From: a virus
Taxonomy: Duplodnaviria > Heunggongvirae > Uroviricota > Caudoviricetes
IMG/VR virus record: IMGVR_UViG_2541047759_000001
Reading direction: 5' to 3' (one strand)
Length of the DNA stretch: 64,000 nucleotides
The translations under genes were made by a program, and so were the position numbers. Of this stretch, positions 5,725-21,162 are shown in pieces (the stretch's first letter is position 1; the number at the start of each line of letters is the position of its first letter). The notes under the pieces were generated by a model, which was not told the origin of the DNA, did not search any database, and saw only the letters and a list, made by a program, of their open reading frames with translations.

Positions 5725-6363
5725 TTAAATATCTTGTTGAATTTTAAAGCATACGCCCAATATGCAAGATAGATCATCCAGCATAATTGAAGGGTAGCGA
5801 GGATTCGTGGGGACTAAAAGAATATCCGGCCCTTCTATCTCCAGTTTACGAATGACAGGTGTTGTGGTCCCTTTGGGTAAGGCAAGGACAATATTTCCTG
5901 GTTGTACGGTTCGATCGGGATCAACAAAAACTGTTGAACCATTTGGGATGGAAACTCCCCCACCAGATGTTGACATACTGTCACTCTCTAGAACAACTGC
6001 AAAGGTATTGACCGGGATTTCTCCGACAAGCTGCACACAAGAGGTTATTGAGGAATTTTTCATATAATCACTCCAGCTTGCTGCCTGCTGAAGTGATAGT
6101 AGCGGAACCGTTTTTATCGGCGGTAAAGATAGATCAAGCGAATCACCTGTATTTAACTCTCCTCCATTAAGAAGCCAATTTTCGTTTACTTTCAATATTT
6201 TTGCCAGTGAACTTATGTAACGCGAGGACGGCGCTCCTCCACCGTTCATCCATTGACTTACGGAGCCTTTTGATGCGCCAGTGCCATTGACAAGGTCTTT
6301 GCCTTTCAGGTTTAGCGCATGCATACGTTGGGTTATGCGTTCAGATATAGTTTGCTTGCTCAT
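5725..6363 (-). CDS. cI: CI-like repressor, N-terminal HTH plus C-terminal S24 LexA-like peptidase domain
   Basis: 212 aa; HTH-like 'GASKGSVSQWMNG'; C-terminal region with Ser and Lys consistent with a self-cleaving S24 domain; divergent from cro. Confidence 0.8.
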   Translation of the reverse strand: MSKQTISERITQRMHALNLKGKDLVNGTGASKGSVSQWMNGGGAPSSRYISSLAKILKVNENWLLNGGELNTGDSLDLSLPPIKTVPLLSLQQAASWSDYMKNSSITSCVQLVGEIPVNTFAVVLESDSMSTSGGGVSIPNGSTVFVDPDRTVQPGNIVLALPKGTTTPVIRKLEIEGPDILLVPTNPRYPSIMLDDLSCILGVCFKIQQDI

Positions 6364-8768: not shown

Positions 8769-9125
8769 ATGGAAATAAAACCAGAGGATGAGTTAAGCAA
8801 TATCGTTTTATTTCCGGTAAAAGAGGATGACCCTCGTAATCAGGTTAATTTTCTTTATGAGCCATCGGAAAGACCATATTGTCATCACGCCTCTGTCCGG
8901 GTTGACGAAAAAGAGCGTCAGGTCCGCTGTAAAATCTGCGGTGCAGTTGTGGAGCCATTTGACTGGATGCTCTCTGTGGCGAAAAGAGAAAGCAGACTGG
9001 CAGATGATGTAAGGCTCTTGCGTCAGGAGGAGCGGGAAAGGCGAAAAAATATAGAAAAGCTAATTCAGATTGAGCGTAACGCGAAAGCGCGGATACGCAG
9101 GGCGACAAAATCCAGAACTGAATAA
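8769..9125 (+). CDS. Hypothetical zinc-ribbon protein
   Basis: AGGAGAGGAG RBS before ATG; 'CHH...CKICG' Cys/His cluster. Confidence 0.55.
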   Translation: MEIKPEDELSNIVLFPVKEDDPRNQVNFLYEPSERPYCHHASVRVDEKERQVRCKICGAVVEPFDWMLSVAKRESRLADDVRLLRQEERERRKNIEKLIQIERNAKARIRRATKSRTE

Positions 9126-12524: not shown

Positions 12525-13346
12525 ATGAAACTGGAAGATTTACCGAAATACTACTCCCCAAAATCCCCTGGCCTGACCGATGCATCGGCCTCAACGTCAA
12601 AAGATGCGCTGAGTATCACTGATGTGATGGCCGCGCAGGGCATGACACAGAATCGGGCTGAGATGGGTTTTTCTGCGTTCCTGGGGAAAATGGGCATCAG
12701 TATGAATGACAGGGCGCGGGCAACAGAATTACTGGCAGATTATGCACTCAGTCGGTGCGATCGTGTGGCGGCGTTGAGAAAACTTCCGGCAGAAATAAAA
12801 CCGGTAGTGATGCGCATTATGGCTTCGTACGCTTTTGAGGATTATGCCCGCAGCGCAGCGAGTAAAAAGCAGTGCCCTTGTTGCTATGGGGAAAAATTTA
12901 TTGAAAGCGTAGTTTTTACAAACAAGGTCCAGTATCCGGATGGTAAGCCGCCGGTATGGGCAAAGTGTACGAAAGGTGTGTATTCGTCTTACTGGGAAGA
13001 ATGGAAAAAAGTCAGGGAGGTGGTAAAAGTTGCCTGTCCGGAGTGTGGCGGAAAGGGTGAGGTTTCCACCGCCTGTAAGGATTGCCGTGGGCGTGGTGTC
13101 GCCATTCATCGTGAAGAGTCGGTAAAACGTGGTATGCCTGTTATCAGAGACTGCCAGCGTTGTGGTGGTCGTGGCTATGAAAGACTACCATCAACGGAGG
13201 CATTTAATGCTATATGCGAGGTGACAAACCAGATAACACGCGCGTCATGGGAAAAAACAGTTAAGAAATTCTATGATGCGCTGGTGACCCGGTTTGATAT
13301 TGAAGAAGCATGGGCTGAGCGGCAGTTAAAAAAGGTAACTAGGTAA
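12525..13346 (+). CDS. Late gene antiterminator Q-like protein
   Basis: 273 aa with several CxxC zinc-finger pairs; sits immediately upstream of the pR'/tR' unit and tRNAs. Confidence 0.75.
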   Translation: MKLEDLPKYYSPKSPGLTDASASTSKDALSITDVMAAQGMTQNRAEMGFSAFLGKMGISMNDRARATELLADYALSRCDRVAALRKLPAEIKPVVMRIMASYAFEDYARSAASKKQCPCCYGEKFIESVVFTNKVQYPDGKPPVWAKCTKGVYSSYWEEWKKVREVVKVACPECGGKGEVSTACKDCRGRGVAIHREESVKRGMPVIRDCQRCGGRGYERLPSTEAFNAICEVTNQITRASWEKTVKKFYDALVTRFDIEEAWAERQLKKVTR

Positions 13347-13489: not shown

Positions 13490-13565
13490 GGCCCTTTAGC
13501 TCAGTGGTGAGAGCGAGCGACTCATAATCGCCAGGTCGCTGGTTCAAATCCAGCAAGGGCCACCA
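13490..13565 (+). tRNA. ileZ: tRNA with CAU anticodon, tRNA-Ile2 (lysidine) type
   Basis: 76-nt cloverleaf with GGCCCTT/AAGGGCC acceptor stem, CTCATAA anticodon loop, GGTTCAAATCC T-loop, encoded CCA. Confidence 0.85.
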
Positions 13566-13665
13566 TCACAAACCGCCATTAGCTTATCAGGAAGAGCAGA
13601 CGACACGATAACAGGGTTGTTGGTGCGGGGGCGGGTCCCCGATGGCGGTCCATTATCGGTATTCA

Positions 13666-13739
13666 GCGTTGTTAGCTCAGCCGGACAGAGCAATTGCCTT
13701 CTAAGCAATCGGTCACTGGTTCGAATCCAGTACAGCGCG
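13666..13739 (+). tRNA. tRNA-Arg (UCU anticodon), phage-type
   Basis: Acceptor stem with one G-U pair, CTTCTAA anticodon loop, GGTTCGAATCC T-loop; no encoded CCA. Confidence 0.7.
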
Positions 13740-13852
13740 CTATATTCATTCTTCCAGATTCCTTCCGGCAGAGCCTTATACTGAAATATACCTGGCTCAG
13801 GATATTGTTGAAAATATTTTATGTTTGTCAAAAATAAAAGTTCTGTTAAGTA

Positions 13853-14206
13853 TTGATTGAGTGTTTGTTATACGGTCTAATGGTTTTTTCAGCATTAAAT
13901 ATTTATCATTCATATGGTGTGGGTAGAGTGAATATTGATGAGGCGTCGGGGTGTTTCATCCTTAGGCAGCGTATTGATATAGTCAATGCAGGACGAGCAA
14001 AGGCCTTCAGCCGTTTGACAGTTTTGTTCTGTACTCCTGATCGTCTTTCGGGAAGAGACGTTATTATTCTGAATAGTGATGCTATACAGAGGGTTTGCGA
14101 TGAGTTCATGGTTGCTAATTCAGAATTATTTGCTCTTGTTCAGGAGTACAACAGAATAGCCAGTACCTGTGGTATGGATGAACTTCGGATTACTCATCTG
14201 GGGTAG
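13853..14206 (+). CDS. Hypothetical protein in low-GC cargo region (start uncertain, possibly 13880)
   Basis: 117-aa ORF in AT-rich DNA between the tRNAs and the esterase gene. Confidence 0.35.
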   Translation: MIECLLYGLMVFSALNIYHSYGVGRVNIDEASGCFILRQRIDIVNAGRAKAFSRLTVLFCTPDRLSGRDVIILNSDAIQRVCDEFMVANSELFALVQEYNRIASTCGMDELRITHLG

Positions 14207-14653
14207 ATACATATCTGGATTATCACTTGTTACGGTAAAAAGTGATTGCTTACTGTTTTTGTGAGTGGCATTGCAGCAGCCGGATAATGTCAGTGCTGGC
14301 TGACGGTGTGCTGGTGGCGGGTGTGGTGGTTGTTGCTTTCCCGTTGCTGAAAAAGAAAACGCCAGACTGTTAGCCGGGTATCAGTTAGCGGGAGAAATTT
14401 TTAAATACTTCACAATTCAGGCGGTTGACTGTTGTCTGGTTTGCGGGGAGTTTGTTAAAAGAAACTGGCATGGTGAATCCCCCTGTGCGGAGGGGCAATC
14501 AGCGAGTAGGTATATGGGATAATCGCGGATTCAGGTGCTGGTACTGAATTCACCGGGAGGCACCCGGCACCATGCAATGGCACATAGCGCCACTCTCCAG
14601 CCCCTCTCCGGAGGGGCTGTTTATATTGATTTTGTCAGATGTGAGTAAACTCC

Positions 14654-14989
14654 TTATGGACTTTGTTGTTTTAGTCCATAAGGACATATTTGCAGAGTGC
14701 AACGGTTATTAAAGCATTCATTCAATACGTTATCTGTATTTGTAGGACATTCCTGGCTGTTTTTGATTAAATTCCAGAATGTTTTATTGAATGGTGCTAC
14801 GTTGTAAATGGTTACAGGTAGCACTTTGTTATTGAGCATGATACCTGTGTGAGTCAGTGTAAATATACTTTCAGGAGGTAAGAAAGCATCCGATTGATAC
14901 CAGATTATTAATTTTATTTTACTCCATATGACTGAAAAAGATATTCCGCATGATGGCTGGATAACTGTATCAATCACAATCCACTTCAT
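14654..14989 (-). CDS. Hypothetical protein in low-GC cargo region
   Basis: 111-aa ORF; 3' end runs through a 10-bp inverted repeat at 14652-14683, so gene reality is uncertain. Confidence 0.3.
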
Positions 14990-15249
14990 TTAGTTTCCTT
15001 GTTTATGTCTTGCTGGTGATGTTCTGAAAAGTATAAATGATATTTTTGAATGTAAACCATAGAGCAGAATTATTTTTCTGATGTTGTTTATTGTTTATTT
15101 AAATGCAGGGTGGTTTATATCTCGTCTTGTAGTTTATCCATGCATATCTGCTTGATGATGAGGTTTTTATTTAAGGTATGGTTTTGTGTTTTTTCTGTAT
15201 TACATGTCAGGTATTTTAAAGAATTATTTTTCAGATGGTGGAAAGAACC

Positions 15250-17211
15250 ATGGCATTTAAACACTATGATGTTGTCAGGGCGGCATCGCCGTCAGACCTT
15301 GCGAAACGACTGACACAAAAACTGAAGGAGGGGTGGCAGCCATTTGGCAGTCCGGTGGCCATCACGCCTTATACCCTGATGCAGGCCATTGCGGCGGAAG
15401 GTGATGTCACCACACCTGTGGTGGTGAAGCCGTCGGATGGAGAAGGCGCAGTTATCAGCACCACCAGCAACCCGGAGTATTACTTTGTTGTTGCCCTGGC
15501 CGGGCAGTCAAACGGTATGGCGTATGGTGAAGGGCTTCCGCTGCCGGAGACATATGACCGTCCGGACCCGCGTATTAAACAGCTGGCGCGTCGCAGCACT
15601 GTCACGCCGGGTGGTGCGTTCTGTAACTACAATGACATTATTCCTGCGGACCACTGCCTGCATGATGTTCAGGATTTGAGTAAGTTTTCACACCCGAAAG
15701 CCAGTGCAGCTCAGTATGGATGCGTGGGGCAGGGATTACATATCGCGAAGAAATTGTTGCCGTTTATTCCGGCGAATGCCGGTATTCTTCTGGTTCCGTG
15801 CTGCCGTGGTGGTTCTGCATTTTTGGCGGGCGATGAAGGTACCTTCAGCGAATCCACCGGCGCAAGCGAGACCTCGGCACGCTGGGGTGTAGATAAGCCA
15901 CTGTACAAGGACCTGCTTACCCGTACTCAGGCCGCACTGAAGGCCAACCCTAAAAATATTCTGCTTGCAGTGGTCTGGATGCAGGGCGAGTTTGATTTGA
16001 AACAGGGTGCATACGCCACCCAGCCGGGGCTGTTTGATTCCATGGTGGAAAAATATCGTTCTGACCTGTCGGAATTCGGAGGTCAGTGTCTCGGGGGCTC
16101 TCCGTCATCGGTTCCCTGGATTTGTGGCGACACGACCTACTACTGGAAGCAGACTTATTCTTCGCAATACGATGCGGTGTATGGTGCATACAAGACGAAA
16201 TCCGCAAAAAAAATCTTCTTTGTGCCGTTTATGACGGATGAAAACGGGCGAAATGTGGGTACCAACGAGCCGTCAGAAGATCCGGATGTTGCGGATATTG
16301 GGTATTACGGAGCCGGTGGTCGAACGGACGCCAAAACCTGGACGACGGCTGACCGTAAAACGCATTTTGGATCATGGGCACGTCGTGGGATTATTTCCGA
16401 CCGTCTGGCAACGGCGATTCTTGTGCATGCCGGGAGAAACGCTGAATTCATTACCGGAAAACAGCCTGATACGGTGAAGCCCACCGGACCTTCCGGTGAA
16501 GGTACGGAGAGAGAGCCGGAAGCCCCGGTCAGTAACCGAACCCTGATGAGTCTGCTGGCGTCCGGCGAAGACCTGGCATCACAGGGCTGGCGCTATTATC
16601 ACAAACCGGCGAGCGGAGACAATGTTAACAAAAACATTGCTGAAGCGGTGGTCAGTGATGCGGGGGCTACGGGAGGTAAGGCCCTGCAACTGAATAAACC
16701 GGAAAACCACATCTGGTTTCTGGAGCATGATGCAGCCGGACAGGGAGTGGAGTTACTGAAGAAGGGGGGACGTGTGAGCGTACGGTTTAAGTTGCCGGGT
16801 TCACTGGTGCCGAATCAGTTTGCCCTGGGCATTTACTGGCAGTTGTCGTCCCTGCCGGAGGGAGTGACGCTGGCAGAGGAAGGCAACGACATGCTGATGT
16901 CCTTCTTTCTGCAGACGGATGCGACGAACCTGAACGCGATGCACCACAAGAAGCCGAATGCGAAGCTGGAAACGTTCGGGGTCTTTGATAACGGATGGCA
17001 CACACTGGCTTTTGAGTTTGCCGGAAACAACAGCATTCAGGTGACGCCGGTACTGGATGAGAAACGGGGGACGCCGTTCACACTGGTGAAATCTCCGGCA
17101 TCAGGGGCGGCGGACAAACTGCAACTGACAGGCATATCAAAGGCGGCGACATATACGCTGCTGATTGACAGTGTGAAGGTGGAAGTGAACAACGCGGACA
17201 TCGCGGCATGA
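15250..17211 (+). CDS. Phage NanS-p-like protein: N-terminal DUF1737 plus SGNH-type esterase domain
   Basis: 654 aa; N-terminus 'MAFKHYDVVRAASPSDLAKRL...EGWQPFGSP' as in Stx-phage NanS-p esterases. Confidence 0.75.
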   Translation: MAFKHYDVVRAASPSDLAKRLTQKLKEGWQPFGSPVAITPYTLMQAIAAEGDVTTPVVVKPSDGEGAVISTTSNPEYYFVVALAGQSNGMAYGEGLPLPETYDRPDPRIKQLARRSTVTPGGAFCNYNDIIPADHCLHDVQDLSKFSHPKASAAQYGCVGQGLHIAKKLLPFIPANAGILLVPCCRGGSAFLAGDEGTFSESTGASETSARWGVDKPLYKDLLTRTQAALKANPKNILLAVVWMQGEFDLKQGAYATQPGLFDSMVEKYRSDLSEFGGQCLGGSPSSVPWICGDTTYYWKQTYSSQYDAVYGAYKTKSAKKIFFVPFMTDENGRNVGTNEPSEDPDVADIGYYGAGGRTDAKTWTTADRKTHFGSWARRGIISDRLATAILVHAGRNAEFITGKQPDTVKPTGPSGEGTEREPEAPVSNRTLMSLLASGEDLASQGWRYYHKPASGDNVNKNIAEAVVSDAGATGGKALQLNKPENHIWFLEHDAAGQGVELLKKGGRVSVRFKLPGSLVPNQFALGIYWQLSSLPEGVTLAEEGNDMLMSFFLQTDATNLNAMHHKKPNAKLETFGVFDNGWHTLAFEFAGNNSIQVTPVLDEKRGTPFTLVKSPASGAADKLQLTGISKAATYTLLIDSVKVEVNNADIAA

Positions 17212-17813: not shown

Positions 17814-17889
17814 GCCTGCGCAAGGGACCATCGGTGTGTGCCGGTGGTCTTTATATTGTTGTGAGCTTCCGGATAACGGGAGACGGGGT

Positions 17890-18105
17890 ATGTACCAGAT
17901 GGAAAAAATCACAACAGGTGTGTCATACACCACGTCAGCGGTGGGAACGGGCTACTGGTTCCTGCAGTTGCTGGACAGGGTTTCCCCGTCTCAGTGGGCG
18001 GCAATAGGCGTGCTGGGGAGTCTGCTGTTTGGGCTGCTGACGTACCTGACTAACCTGTATTTCAAAATCAAAGAGGACCGGCGTAAGGCGGCGCGGGGAG
18101 AGTAA
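17890..18105 (+). CDS. S: Class II holin, S21-type pinholin with dual start
   Basis: Two close Met starts (MYQMEKI); '[51 protein letters not shown]' matches the S21 family. Confidence 0.75.
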
Positions 18106-18109
18106 AGTG

Positions 18110-19000
18110 ATGAATAAAAAATATGAACTGGTTGTTAAGGGGATAAATAATTACGGGGATAAGGTTACTGTTACTGTGAAGTCGGAAGGTGACGGGCAAG
18201 CGTCGCTGTTGTTGCCAGATGTGGCGATTAGTCTTGACCGTACTGAAGGTGCCACGCTGGAGTTTTACGAAGCTGAGGCGAAAAAGCAGGCGAAGCAGTT
18301 TTTCATGGATGTTGCTGCCGGGTTATGTGAATGGAACGAACCGTTGCCGGAAAAGCGCCCCGTAATTTTAGAGGCGCAGGATGTGTTGATAACCTACAAA
18401 GGAAAGCTACCGGGAAGAATTACTTGTTCTCTGAAGATGCCGCCGTCAACACTGCGGTCAGAAAAAGATGATGTTGAATCACGTATTGAAAAACTGGAGA
18501 GCTACGTCGTTGAGCTGAATAAGAAATGGTCGATATTGGTGCCTTCTGGCGATGAAAAGCAGTTTGCTGCGTTTGACGATTATTGTCGGAAAGTGATGAG
18601 CAGAAATCTCGCAGAGTGTTTCAGTATTCATAATGATAATTTCAGTGACCCGGAATGGGAGTGTAACCGGCCATCCTTTGTTGTATCCGGTGATGCTGGG
18701 AAAATAACCATCTCAGAAAATGGGAAAGTAACACCTCCATCGCACCAGCACAGTGAGGAGCTCATTGAATTTGCCATTGATTACCTGAAGAACAATAAAA
18801 AGCAGGGGCTGATGAAGCGCGTTGGCCGTTGCATGGGATATCTTCAGGTAGCCGCTGAGATTGAAGCGCTGGCCAGTGGTGCTGATAAGGATGCAATTGT
18901 GCGGGAGGCTCTTCTTCGTGATTTTAATACTCCACCCTTTAAAAAAGTGCCGGCTTACTGGCTTCATCCGGGGCTGACTTATCTTAAAGTGCGTATTTAG
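18110..19000 (+). CDS. Unrecognised 296-aa soluble protein inserted between holin and endolysin
   Basis: GGGGAGAG RBS, ATG 5 nt after the holin stop; no TM segment or signal peptide; no family recognised. Confidence 0.7.
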   Translation: MNKKYELVVKGINNYGDKVTVTVKSEGDGQASLLLPDVAISLDRTEGATLEFYEAEAKKQAKQFFMDVAAGLCEWNEPLPEKRPVILEAQDVLITYKGKLPGRITCSLKMPPSTLRSEKDDVESRIEKLESYVVELNKKWSILVPSGDEKQFAAFDDYCRKVMSRNLAECFSIHNDNFSDPEWECNRPSFVVSGDAGKITISENGKVTPPSHQHSEELIEFAIDYLKNNKKQGLMKRVGRCMGYLQVAAEIEALASGADKDAIVREALLRDFNTPPFKKVPAYWLHPGLTYLKVRI

Positions 19001-19036: not shown

Positions 19037-19570
19037 ATGAACACCAAAATCAAATACGGCCTGTCGGCTGCCGTTCTGGCGCTGATTGCCGCTGGTGCGC
19101 CTGCGCCTGACATTCTCGACCAGTTTCTGGATGAAAAGGAAGGCAACCACACCACGGCATACCGTGATGGTGCAGGTATCTGGACCATCTGCCGTGGTGC
19201 CATCATGGTGGATGGCAAACCTGTCGTTCCGGGCATGAAGTTGTCGAAGGAAAAATGCGACCAGGTTAACGCCATTGAGCGTGATAAAGCGCTGGCGTGG
19301 GTGGAGAAAAACATCAGAGTGCCGCTGACCGAACCCCAGAAAGCGGGGATCGCGTCATTCTGTCCGTACAACATTGGTCCCGGTAAGTGTTTCCCGTCGA
19401 CGTTTTACAGACGAATTAATGCTGGTGATCGAAAAGGTGCCTGCGAAGCGATTCGCTGGTGGATTAAGGACGGTGGCAGAGACTGCCGTATTCGTTCAAA
19501 CAACTGTTACGGTCAGGTATCCCGTCGTGACCAGGAGAGCGCGCTGGCGTGCTGGGGTATCGACAGATAA
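19037..19570 (+). CDS. R: SAR endolysin (phage lysozyme with N-terminal signal-anchor-release domain)
   Basis: 'GLSAAVLALIAAGAPA' SAR segment then 'DEKEGNHTTAYRDGAGIWTICRG' lysozyme catalytic region. Confidence 0.85.
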   Translation: MNTKIKYGLSAAVLALIAAGAPAPDILDQFLDEKEGNHTTAYRDGAGIWTICRGAIMVDGKPVVPGMKLSKEKCDQVNAIERDKALAWVEKNIRVPLTEPQKAGIASFCPYNIGPGKCFPSTFYRRINAGDRKGACEAIRWWIKDGGRDCRIRSNNCYGQVSRRDQESALACWGIDR

Positions 19571-19923: not shown

Positions 19924-20055
19924 ATGTCAGACAAACTCATAACGCTGGCGAAGATCCTCTGTGTAATTGTCGGCATTTCATTTTCACTAATGCTGGTTGC
20001 TCTTTTTCTTTCCATGGCCTGGATGATGTTGTCTTCGTCGGGGTTGCTGGGGTGA
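19924..20055 (+). CDS. Small membrane peptide (43 aa), between endolysin and Rz
   Basis: GGGAGG RBS before ATG at 19924; single TM '[26 protein letters not shown]'. Confidence 0.5.
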
Positions 20056-20525
20056 ACATAAACCGAATGCTTTCCGCGTTTATCGTTATTCTGCTGGTGG
20101 CCTGTGGTGCGCTGTGGATGGCAACAGACCATTACCGTGATAACGCGATTACCTACAAAGCGCAGCGCGATAACAAAGCCAGTGAACTGAAGCTGGCGAA
20201 CGCAACCATTACTGATATGCAGGTGCGCCAGCGCGATGTTGCTGCGCTCGATGCAAAATACTCGAGGGAATTAGCCGATGCGAGAGCTGAAAATGAAACT
20301 CTTCGCGCTGACGTTGCCGCTGGTCGTAAGCGCCTGCGGATCAACGCCACCTGTCCAGGCTCCGTGCGTGAAGCCCCCACCACCTCCGGCGTGGATAATG
20401 CAACCGGCCCCCAACTGGCAGACACCGTTACACGGGATTATTTCACCCTCAGAGAGCGGCTGATGACGATGCACAAGCAACTGGAAGGGGCACAGGACTA
20501 TATCCGCACTCAGTGCCTGAAATAA
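20052..20525 (+). CDS. Rz: Rz i-spanin (start may be the ATG at 20067)
   Basis: N-terminal TM then '[14 protein letters not shown]...[25 protein letters not shown]' matching lambda Rz. Confidence 0.85.
20278..20463 (+). CDS. Rz1: Rz1 o-spanin lipoprotein, embedded in Rz in the +1 frame
   Basis: Lipobox 'LVVSAC', proline-rich '[22 protein letters not shown]' as in lambda Rz1. Confidence 0.8.
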
Positions 20526-20835: not shown

Positions 20836-21162
20836 ATGAAAAGACGCCTTTTACTACTTTTTCTGTTATCTGTCCTGGCAGTGGGATGCTCGCAGCAAAA
20901 AGCTGATGAGCCCCGGCAATTAGTGACGGTGTATCCACGATATCCGGAATATGCTGCAGCAAATTATATCAAGGGGCTGGTTGAGGTTAAGTTCGATATT
21001 GGTGCTGATGGGACTGTGACACGGATCGTTTTTCTCCGCTCAGAGCCTCATAATTTGTTTCGTGATGAAGTGGTGAAGGCCATGGCGAAATGGCGATTTG
21101 AAAAGAATCGCCCCTGTCAGGGAGTGAAGAGACAATTTATCTTTACGCCGTCACGTCCTTGA
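20836..21162 (+). CDS. Lipoprotein moron downstream of the lysis cassette
   Basis: Signal peptide with lipobox 'LAVGCSQ'; 108 aa. Confidence 0.6.
   Translation: MKRRLLLLFLLSVLAVGCSQQKADEPRQLVTVYPRYPEYAAANYIKGLVEVKFDIGADGTVTRIVFLRSEPHNLFRDEVVKAMAKWRFEKNRPCQGVKRQFIFTPSRP

Follow-up and report, generated by a model that had tools for sequence, protein, structure and literature searches.

The gene that gave the family considered here its name is ydfR of Escherichia coli K-12 (b1555, P76160), which lies in the cryptic prophage Qin between the holin gene essQ and the lysozyme gene rrrQ. Its 103-amino-acid product was recovered in a two-hybrid screen, in which residues 1–72 sufficed for signals with Rne (RNase E) and Rng (RNase G), and Strep-YdfR co-purified Rne(1-598) together with DNase-resistant nucleic acid (Göpel et al., RNA Biol 2026, PMC13232886). 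A long relative of this gene was analysed in a stretch of 64,000 nucleotides of tailed-phage DNA (IMG/VR record IMGVR_UViG_2541047759_000001, Caudoviricetes; the whole stretch is called the window below), which contains the late region of a lambdoid prophage. As in K-12, the gene has a homologous N-terminal domain, the same position between a class II holin gene and a lysozyme gene, and the same short junction to the holin. In contrast to the K-12 protein, which consists of the N-terminal domain and a short helix, the 296-amino-acid product also has a helical hairpin linker and a C-terminal domain of 115 residues.

Phage proteins that modulate RNase E are known from other systems. The T7 gp0.7 kinase, T4 Srd and phiKZ Dip are early or middle gene products of virulent phages and mostly target the C-terminal scaffold of the enzyme. 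If the RNase E lead from K-12 holds for the long form, it would share with them that a phage protein binds the main decay enzyme and alters mRNA turnover, whereas the half bound by YdfR is the N-terminal, catalytic one, and YdfR is encoded by a late gene of temperate phages. Another comparison can be drawn to the accessory genes, or morons, of lambdoid late operons such as stx, nanS-p, bor and lom. The gene is like these in its accessory nature, its probable place on the Q-dependent late transcript, its deviant G+C content, its variable presence and its several insertion sites. A classic moron typically comes with a promoter and a terminator of its own and is expressed in the lysogen; the gene described here has neither signal and is coupled to the holin, and should therefore be silent in the lysogen.

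Family membership and domain architecture

The 296-amino-acid protein belongs almost certainly to the YdfR/DUF1327 family, of which it is a long form with two domains. Residues 1–100 matched positions 1–88 of the 93 in the Pfam DUF1327/YdfR profile (PF07041) with 137.9 bits (cut-off 25; E=1.3e-40), and the full length, residues 1–296, aligned to positions 1–296 of the 296-position profile of phrog_1085 (PHROGs v4, unknown function; E=3.1e-190). RefSeq copies with 100% nucleotide identity are named 'YdfR family protein', and 296-amino-acid proteins carry this name too. An earlier note on this DNA, made without database searches, had recognised no domain in the protein, and this was corrected for residues 1–100 by the DUF1327 match. 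With 296 residues and an extra linker and C-terminal domain, the protein does not have the single-domain form of about 100 amino acids that is typical of the family; the additional length is a long-form architecture of the YdfR family and no ground for exclusion. The gene, the family name and the position between holin and endolysin were already known from databases and from K-12.

Alignments of homologues together with an AlphaFold2 (AF2) model gave a three-part architecture. The N-terminal domain, the DUF1327/YdfR core, was modelled as three beta-strands followed by a long helix, carries the signature ...DR.EGA.LEFYEAEA... and is 47% identical to K-12 YdfR over residues 1–74. It is followed by a variable linker, an indel-rich mosaic with alternative segments among alleles, in which a low-confidence part (residues 76–111) precedes a predicted helical hairpin (H112–146, H149–172). 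The C-terminal domain was modelled as three short strands and four helices, and Pfam holds no model for it. Its motif reads MKRxGRCMGxLQVAAEIEA ... DFDNPPFK..P..W..PG..YLK.R, and seven residues (G239, R240, P276, K278, W284, P287 and Y291) are invariant among homologues down to 28% identity. An internal duplication was also considered, as the N- and C-terminal domains both show a strand-strand-strand-helix order, and was rejected (hhalign probability 0.7%).

Long forms of the same kind are found in Stx2_95, a Shiga toxin (Stx) 2a phage (329 amino acids), and in Stx2 phage 86 (gp05, 268 amino acids). Both combine N-terminal domain, linker and C-terminal domain, belong to phrog_1085 and lie between the holin gene (S) and the lysozyme gene (R), an arrangement abbreviated S-X-R below. 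C-terminal domains of this type are 83–94% identical to the one described here, whereas linker lengths differ through indels. Unlike these Stx phages, this prophage has no stx gene. Other alleles have only some of the parts: the N-terminal domain only in K-12, BP-4795 and locus L023, the N-terminal domain and linker in PhiR5_1 (211 amino acids), and only the C-terminal part straight after the holin in L006, L024 and Stx2_12E129 (185–213 amino acids). In P0057 and P0151 the N-terminal domain is joined to unrelated C-termini.

A sister family with about 28% identity was found in Salmonella enterica, where all members are annotated as 'hypothetical protein' and the N-terminal domain is too diverged for the Pfam model. 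Its proteins (e.g. P0237 with 305 and P0147 with 266 amino acids) are nevertheless two-domain, keep all seven invariant residues of the C-terminal domain and are encoded in the late operon beside a holin. Because N- and C-terminal domains are kept together over this distance, the fused form is old and not a local read-through. Pairwise ratios of nonsynonymous to synonymous substitutions (dN/dS) were 0.16–0.40 for the C-terminal domain, 0.09–0.65 for the N-terminal domain and 0.3–1.1 for the linker, values which indicate purifying selection on the C-terminal domain. With 204 database homologues, residues invariant at such low identity and dN/dS below 1, the frame is coding far beyond chance.

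In a set of 5,426 complete E. coli genomes, megablast located some part of the gene at 6,175 places in 2,703 genomes and at least 80% of it in 496 genomes. A holin of this type was found at 8,848 places in 2,452 genomes, and the C-terminal domain at 952 places in 777 genomes (at least 444 of them at ≥99% identity). Among deposited phage genomes, 368 records matched the S-to-R stretch by megablast versus 100 records with the N-terminal domain by tblastn; the C-terminal domain was present in 5 records. An exhaustive HMMER search returned just 112 representatives among 1.84 billion proteins, and scans for wider relatives gave 3 loci in genome contigs and 1 and 0 loci in viral contigs. All matches of the C-terminal domain that bear an organism name come from Escherichia, Shigella or Salmonella, a few others from unnamed assemblies, and the profile search with this domain yielded neither further named taxa nor fusions.

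The earlier note had taken holin and endolysin to be normally adjacent and the gene between them to be an oddity. This view did not hold: E. coli prophages of this class commonly have a gene between S and R, and its insertion there is not unusual, as K-12 Qin, BP-4795 (S-ORF47-R), Stx2 phage 86 and Stx2_95 show. What the note itself had named as an outcome against its proposal, a common conserved phage protein, is essentially what was found.

In RefSeq sequences identical to this one (e.g. strain 7/2), the Prokaryotic Genome Annotation Pipeline (PGAP) annotates nothing but the first 336 nucleotides, which it labels 'YdfR family protein, incomplete, missing C-terminus' and counts as a pseudogene. 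The other roughly 555 nucleotides of the intact 296-codon open reading frame (ORF) carry no annotation. Similarly, among the C-terminal domain matches with ≥99% identity (a band of 444 genomes), seven of the seven samples listed had 'none' as annotated feature. The pseudogene call seems to be an artefact of annotation with a family model limited to the N-terminal domain.

Junction, expression and genomic context

A GTG at 18107 would give a protein of 297 amino acids; since homologues open with MNKKYEL, MKKKYEL or MTQNYEL, the ATG at 18110 was taken as the start. It lies 4 nucleotides past the holin stop, and the gene ends 36 nucleotides ahead of the lysozyme gene. The Shine-Dalgarno sequence GGGGAGAG is embedded in the final holin codons. 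The same junction (GGGGAGAG, GAGGAGAG or GGGGAGAT, then the stop, 3–5 nucleotides and ATG) was kept in all seven relatives inspected, including essQ-ydfR of K-12 with its likewise 4-nucleotide spacing, and it is unchanged whether the downstream ORF opens with the N-terminal domain or with the C-terminal part. The tight coupling to the holin stop that the earlier note had described was thus confirmed. Its reading of the anatomy, with an S21-type holin, a SAR-type (signal-arrest-release) lysozyme and the 296-amino-acid gene between them, was equally right by Pfam, PHROG and ORF calls, and so was its expectation of a soluble product: no transmembrane segment was found in the protein, the maximum Kyte-Doolittle mean over 19 residues being 0.75. 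The grand average of hydropathy is -0.41 and the isoelectric point 5.95.

Neither a sigma-70-like promoter nor a convincing terminator was found on the plus strand between S and R, and it is therefore natural to infer that the gene is expressed solely together with the late operon, on the Q-dependent transcript. The late expression proposed earlier stands in this sense. Taken together with the conserved junction and the absence of a transmembrane segment, this means that the gene would be translationally coupled to the holin and its product would be cytoplasmic and made in the last phase of lytic growth. The G+C content of the gene is 0.45–0.48 versus about 0.55 in its neighbours (holin, lysozyme, Rz and nanS-p), and G+C at third codon positions is 0.44–0.51 versus 0.59–0.71 in the same genes, which points to a separate origin of the module.

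In relatives, other positions are occupied. The Salmonella homologues do not lie between holin and lysozyme, the genes of which overlap there, but between the Q antiterminator and the holin, beside ParE or HicA/HicB toxin-antitoxin modules; a more distant relative has the same layout. An IMG/VR phage has two DUF1327-like genes ahead of an unrelated holin and endolysin. In other lambdoid prophages, DUF1327 proteins of 72–76 amino acids are encoded between the tail genes M (Phage_min_tail) and L (Phage_tail_L), so that the late operon can contain the YdfR N-terminal domain at a great distance from the lysis genes as well. The constant feature is thus an accessory site in the late operon and not adjacency to a particular lysis protein, and for this reason the YdfR family is regarded as late-operon cargo and not as lysis machinery. 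The low G+C content, the mosaicism and the absence from many similar S/R cassettes fit this assignment.

The long YdfR or C-terminal domain gene is in relatives often followed by a convergent ORF of 105–107 amino acids belonging to phrog_1853 (unknown function). Such partners were found in E. coli Stx phages, in Salmonella and in a distant relative, with 30–50% identity to each other, and the pairing suggests a functional partner. It is facultative, with 100 places versus the 952 of the C-terminal domain in E. coli (about 10%). Phage 86 and Stx2_12E129 have the phrog_1853 gene ahead of R, whereas the window is without it. Another convergent type belongs to phrog_2572 (annotated 'DUF1823') and lies behind the PhiR5_1 gene and behind a Salmonella locus.

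Proposed function and rival explanations

Database searches for a function gave little beyond the family name. NCBIfam had no match, and Pfam matched only DUF1327 in the 296-amino-acid protein and nothing except DUF1327 in the alternative C-termini and the Salmonella relatives. All nine PHROG matches of the protein were of 'unknown function', with no lysis family among them. The best hit among the defence models of PADLOC-DB 2.0 was PbeC (E=0.018, 11 bits), confined to the helical linker and at chance level. Sequence-profile searches of the PDB gave nothing below E=0.07, and structure prediction followed by Foldseek against the PDB and BFVD, the route proposed in the earlier note, brought no structural relative and no enzyme fold; nothing in the PDB was found to be similar in sequence or fold. 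Hallmarks of a lysis protein (a transmembrane, SAR or signal segment, a lipobox, a muralytic domain or a match to a lysis profile) were absent from the protein, as were those of an exotoxin or AB5 toxin (a secretion signal with a toxin or receptor-binding domain or fold). A published survey of Stx-phage lysis cassettes does not discuss the gene between S and R. In the literature searched, DUF1327 is mentioned in one paper, and the work on K-12 YdfR (PMC13232886) is the sole source of experimental data for the family.

In the alignment, the invariant residues of the C-terminal domain contain no conserved acidic, Cys or Ser set. As they are Gly, Arg, Pro, Lys, Trp and Tyr and no enzyme fold was matched, they look more like a surface for binding than like a catalytic site. 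The proposed explanation is therefore that of an accessory, moron-type late-operon gene of E. coli lambdoid prophages, which would be neither lysis machinery nor a toxin. In the dying host cell, its product would bind macromolecules of the host and not act as a catalyst. The N-terminal domain, homologous to the RNase E-binding segment of K-12 YdfR (47% identity over residues 1–72), would dock on RNase E or RNA, the helical hairpin linker may oligomerise the protein, and the C-terminal domain would add a second binding or regulatory activity. Overall, RNA turnover late in infection would be changed. As a whole, this explanation, which blends the family identity with the RNase E mechanism, was considered the best one and given somewhat less than an even chance. 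Its mechanistic part taken separately, RNase E binding by the long form, is a lead drawn from homology and not a result, and was judged possible but rather doubtful. The more far-reaching version, in which long YdfR is a bipartite late host-takeover factor of lambdoid and Stx phages that docks on RNase E with its N-terminal domain and reprogrammes RNA decay before lysis with its C-terminal domain, was held to be improbable.

Several points weigh against an RNase E-based function. The interaction is known solely for the 103-amino-acid K-12 protein under over-expression, and over-production of YdfR altered few transcripts and left growth unaffected (PMC13232886). The AF2 model is of moderate quality, with a predicted template modelling score of 0.41 and a mean predicted local distance difference test score (pLDDT) of 51.6 from an E. 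coli-only alignment and of 70.9 once Salmonella relatives were added. Furthermore, N- and C-terminal modules occur separately, as in BP-4795 and K-12 on the one hand and in L006, L024 and Stx2_12E129 on the other, and the C-terminal domain therefore cannot depend on docking by the N-terminal one. Finally, the tight and conserved adjacency to holin genes of three families would fit a lysis-related role as well.

Among the alternatives, a late factor for host takeover, anti-defence or exclusion that targets something else than RNase E is unlikely. Such a factor might for instance block superinfection of the lysing cell or an abortive-infection system by which late proteins are sensed. Moron-like low G+C content, shuffling of modules with several alternative C-termini and several insertion sites in the late operon would agree with it, as would the narrow taxonomic range and fast evolution indicated by the few representatives in the exhaustive search. 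The frequent pairing of the C-terminal domain gene with the convergent phrog_1853 gene in relatives is reminiscent of antagonist pairs, but this partner is absent from the window and from about 90% of the E. coli loci with the C-terminal domain. Known anti-defence genes are mostly early genes, the PADLOC search gave no match of weight, and the coupling to the holin counts against expression in the lysogen and hence against a defence acquired by lysogenic conversion.

A regulator of lysis timing would be made in a fixed ratio with the holin and would bind the charged cytoplasmic C-terminal tail of the pinholin or the unreleased SAR endolysin, thereby tuning depolarisation. This is quite unlikely. 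It would explain why the gene directly follows the holin stop with a conserved coupling junction, and why family members lie within about 0.5 kb of three kinds of holin in E. coli, Salmonella and the IMG/VR phage. In addition, ydfR was a hit in a genome-wide Keio library screen for envelope integrity (Paradis-Bleau 2014, as cited in PMC13232886). That phenotype could, however, stem from polarity on rrrQ, the lysozyme gene downstream. The protein has no membrane segment or signal peptide and matches no lysis family of PHROG or Pfam, and many S/R cassettes of the same type are without the gene. In Salmonella, S and R overlap and the homologue lies upstream, and the short DUF1327 proteins have their genes among those for the tail, far away from the lysis cassette.

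A functionless mosaic remnant, that is a read-through fusion of decaying ORFs persisting between two selected genes, is very improbable. The pseudogene label in identical copies and the highly mosaic region with its many truncated variants could be taken as signs of decay, but the 296-codon frame is intact, dN/dS of the C-terminal domain is low, both domains and all seven invariant residues are kept in Salmonella, and the C-terminal domain is preserved at ≥99% identity in hundreds of genomes. An effector freed by phage lysis like Shiga toxin and acting outside the cell on competitors or the animal host, the release logic drawn in the earlier note, is hardly credible: the product would be made late and freed at lysis, and stx and nanS-p occupy the same late-operon region in related phages, but it has no signal peptide, no receptor-binding, toxin or enzyme domain and no structural relative, its conserved residues give no impression of a catalytic site, the target bound by the short homologue is a host enzyme of the cytoplasm (PMC13232886), and commensal and laboratory strains of E. 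coli, K-12 included, commonly have members of the family, which is present in half of the complete genomes whatever their pathotype.

Neighbouring genes and significance

The remaining genes of the region are listed in Table 1. The holin is identical to a protein of PhiR5_1 and near-identical to those of BP-4795 and Stx2 phage 86. Its N-terminus, MYQMEK, has Met codons at positions 1 and 4 (17890–17901), a two-start layout that resembles the 71/68 pair of S21 without the Lys of the MKSM start, which is found in K-12 essQ and the L006 holin. An antiholin idea, according to which the MYQM start would track the presence of YdfR, was dropped, since both holin variants have YdfR-type genes downstream. 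About 40 nucleotides upstream of the holin start there is a terminator-like hairpin, which lies within the late transcript and may be a Q-antiterminated site or an element of RNA processing or stability. The lysozyme fits a SAR endolysin because of its Gly/Ala-rich hydrophobic N-terminus (MNTKIKYGLSAAVLALIAAGAPAP) and its E-x8-D-x5-T motif, both read from the sequence. The cassette ends with Rz and the embedded Rz1, at the position of which the identical prophage in strain 7/2 has an annotated 'lysis protein'. The lipoprotein-like 'TonB family protein' gene behind them occupies the place of Bor in lambda. The interval from Q to nanS-p (13490–15230), the stx site of Stx phages, contains tRNA-Met, tRNA-Arg and IraM here.

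Table 1. Features of the late region in the window and of related loci named in the text.
Feature	Sequence	Coordinates	Strand	Size	Basis or remark
Q antiterminator-like ORF	window	12525-13346			
tRNA-Met	window	13490-13565			
tRNA-Arg	window	13666-13740			
IraM anti-adapter gene	window	14654-14989	minus		99% identical to annotated IraM, strain 7/2
NanS-p-type esterase	window	15235-17211			domains DUF1737 + SASA + DUF6645 (Pfam)
Terminator-like hairpin	window	17823-17852			13-bp stem and T-rich tract
Phage-21-type class II holin (pinholin family)	window	17890-18105	plus	71 aa	PF04971, E=7e-33; phrog_20/9876 'holin'
Shine-Dalgarno GGGGAGAG	window	18093-18100	plus		in final holin codons; holin stop TAA 18103-18105
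Long-form YdfR-family gene, intact	window	18110-19000	plus	296 aa and stop	ORF call, homologues, phrog_1085
N-terminal domain, DUF1327/YdfR core	window	18110-18334	plus	aa 1-75	Pfam; AF2 pLDDT 74-95
Variable linker	window	18335-18652	plus	aa 76-181	indel-rich mosaic
C-terminal domain	window	18653-18997	plus	aa 182-296	AF2 pLDDT 69-95
Part of the ORF left unannotated by PGAP	window; L001	18446-19000; 9337-9891		~555 nt	
SAR-type endolysin, T4-lysozyme family	window	19037-19570	plus	177 aa	PF00959, E=2e-24; phrog_7 endolysin
Rz-type i-spanin	window	20052-20525	plus		ORF call; cassette end
Rz1 o-spanin, embedded in Rz	window	20278-20463	plus		ORF call
'TonB family protein'	window	20836-21162		108 aa	100% identical to strain 7/2 annotation
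Salmonella sister family	L008; L010	5001-5918; 5001-5801			no Pfam hit
Short DUF1327 genes	L016; L019	4001-4231; 4001-4219		72-76 aa	between tail genes M and L
Convergent phrog_1853 ORFs	L013; L014; L010; L021	2585-2899; 2464-2778; 5807-6124; 436-759	minus	105-107 aa	unknown function

As a discovery, the locus is of little weight, and a ydfR-type gene between S and R will not surprise a specialist. Three points do not appear in the literature searched: the two-domain architecture conserved from Escherichia to Salmonella, the C-terminal domain as a separate module that is under purifying selection and has no model in Pfam, and the repeated occurrence of a small convergent phrog_1853 gene behind the C-terminal domain gene. 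A real gap is that a family present in about half of the complete E. coli genomes, in many Stx1a and Stx2c and in some Stx2a phage records has no known function, the more so as its genes are expressed at the moment of toxin release. For the long form, this gap extends to annotation, since in hundreds of RefSeq genomes the C-terminal domain carries no annotation or the gene is labelled a pseudogene.

Should the RNase E lead apply to the long form too, the gene could bear on the stability of late transcripts including stx and on the dynamics of lysis and burst in pathogenic E. coli. Should even the bipartite version be true, long YdfR would represent a new class of RNase E modulators and a first function for a gene found in about half of E. 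coli, and the stability of late-gene and Stx-operon transcripts would be affected in the minutes before lysis.

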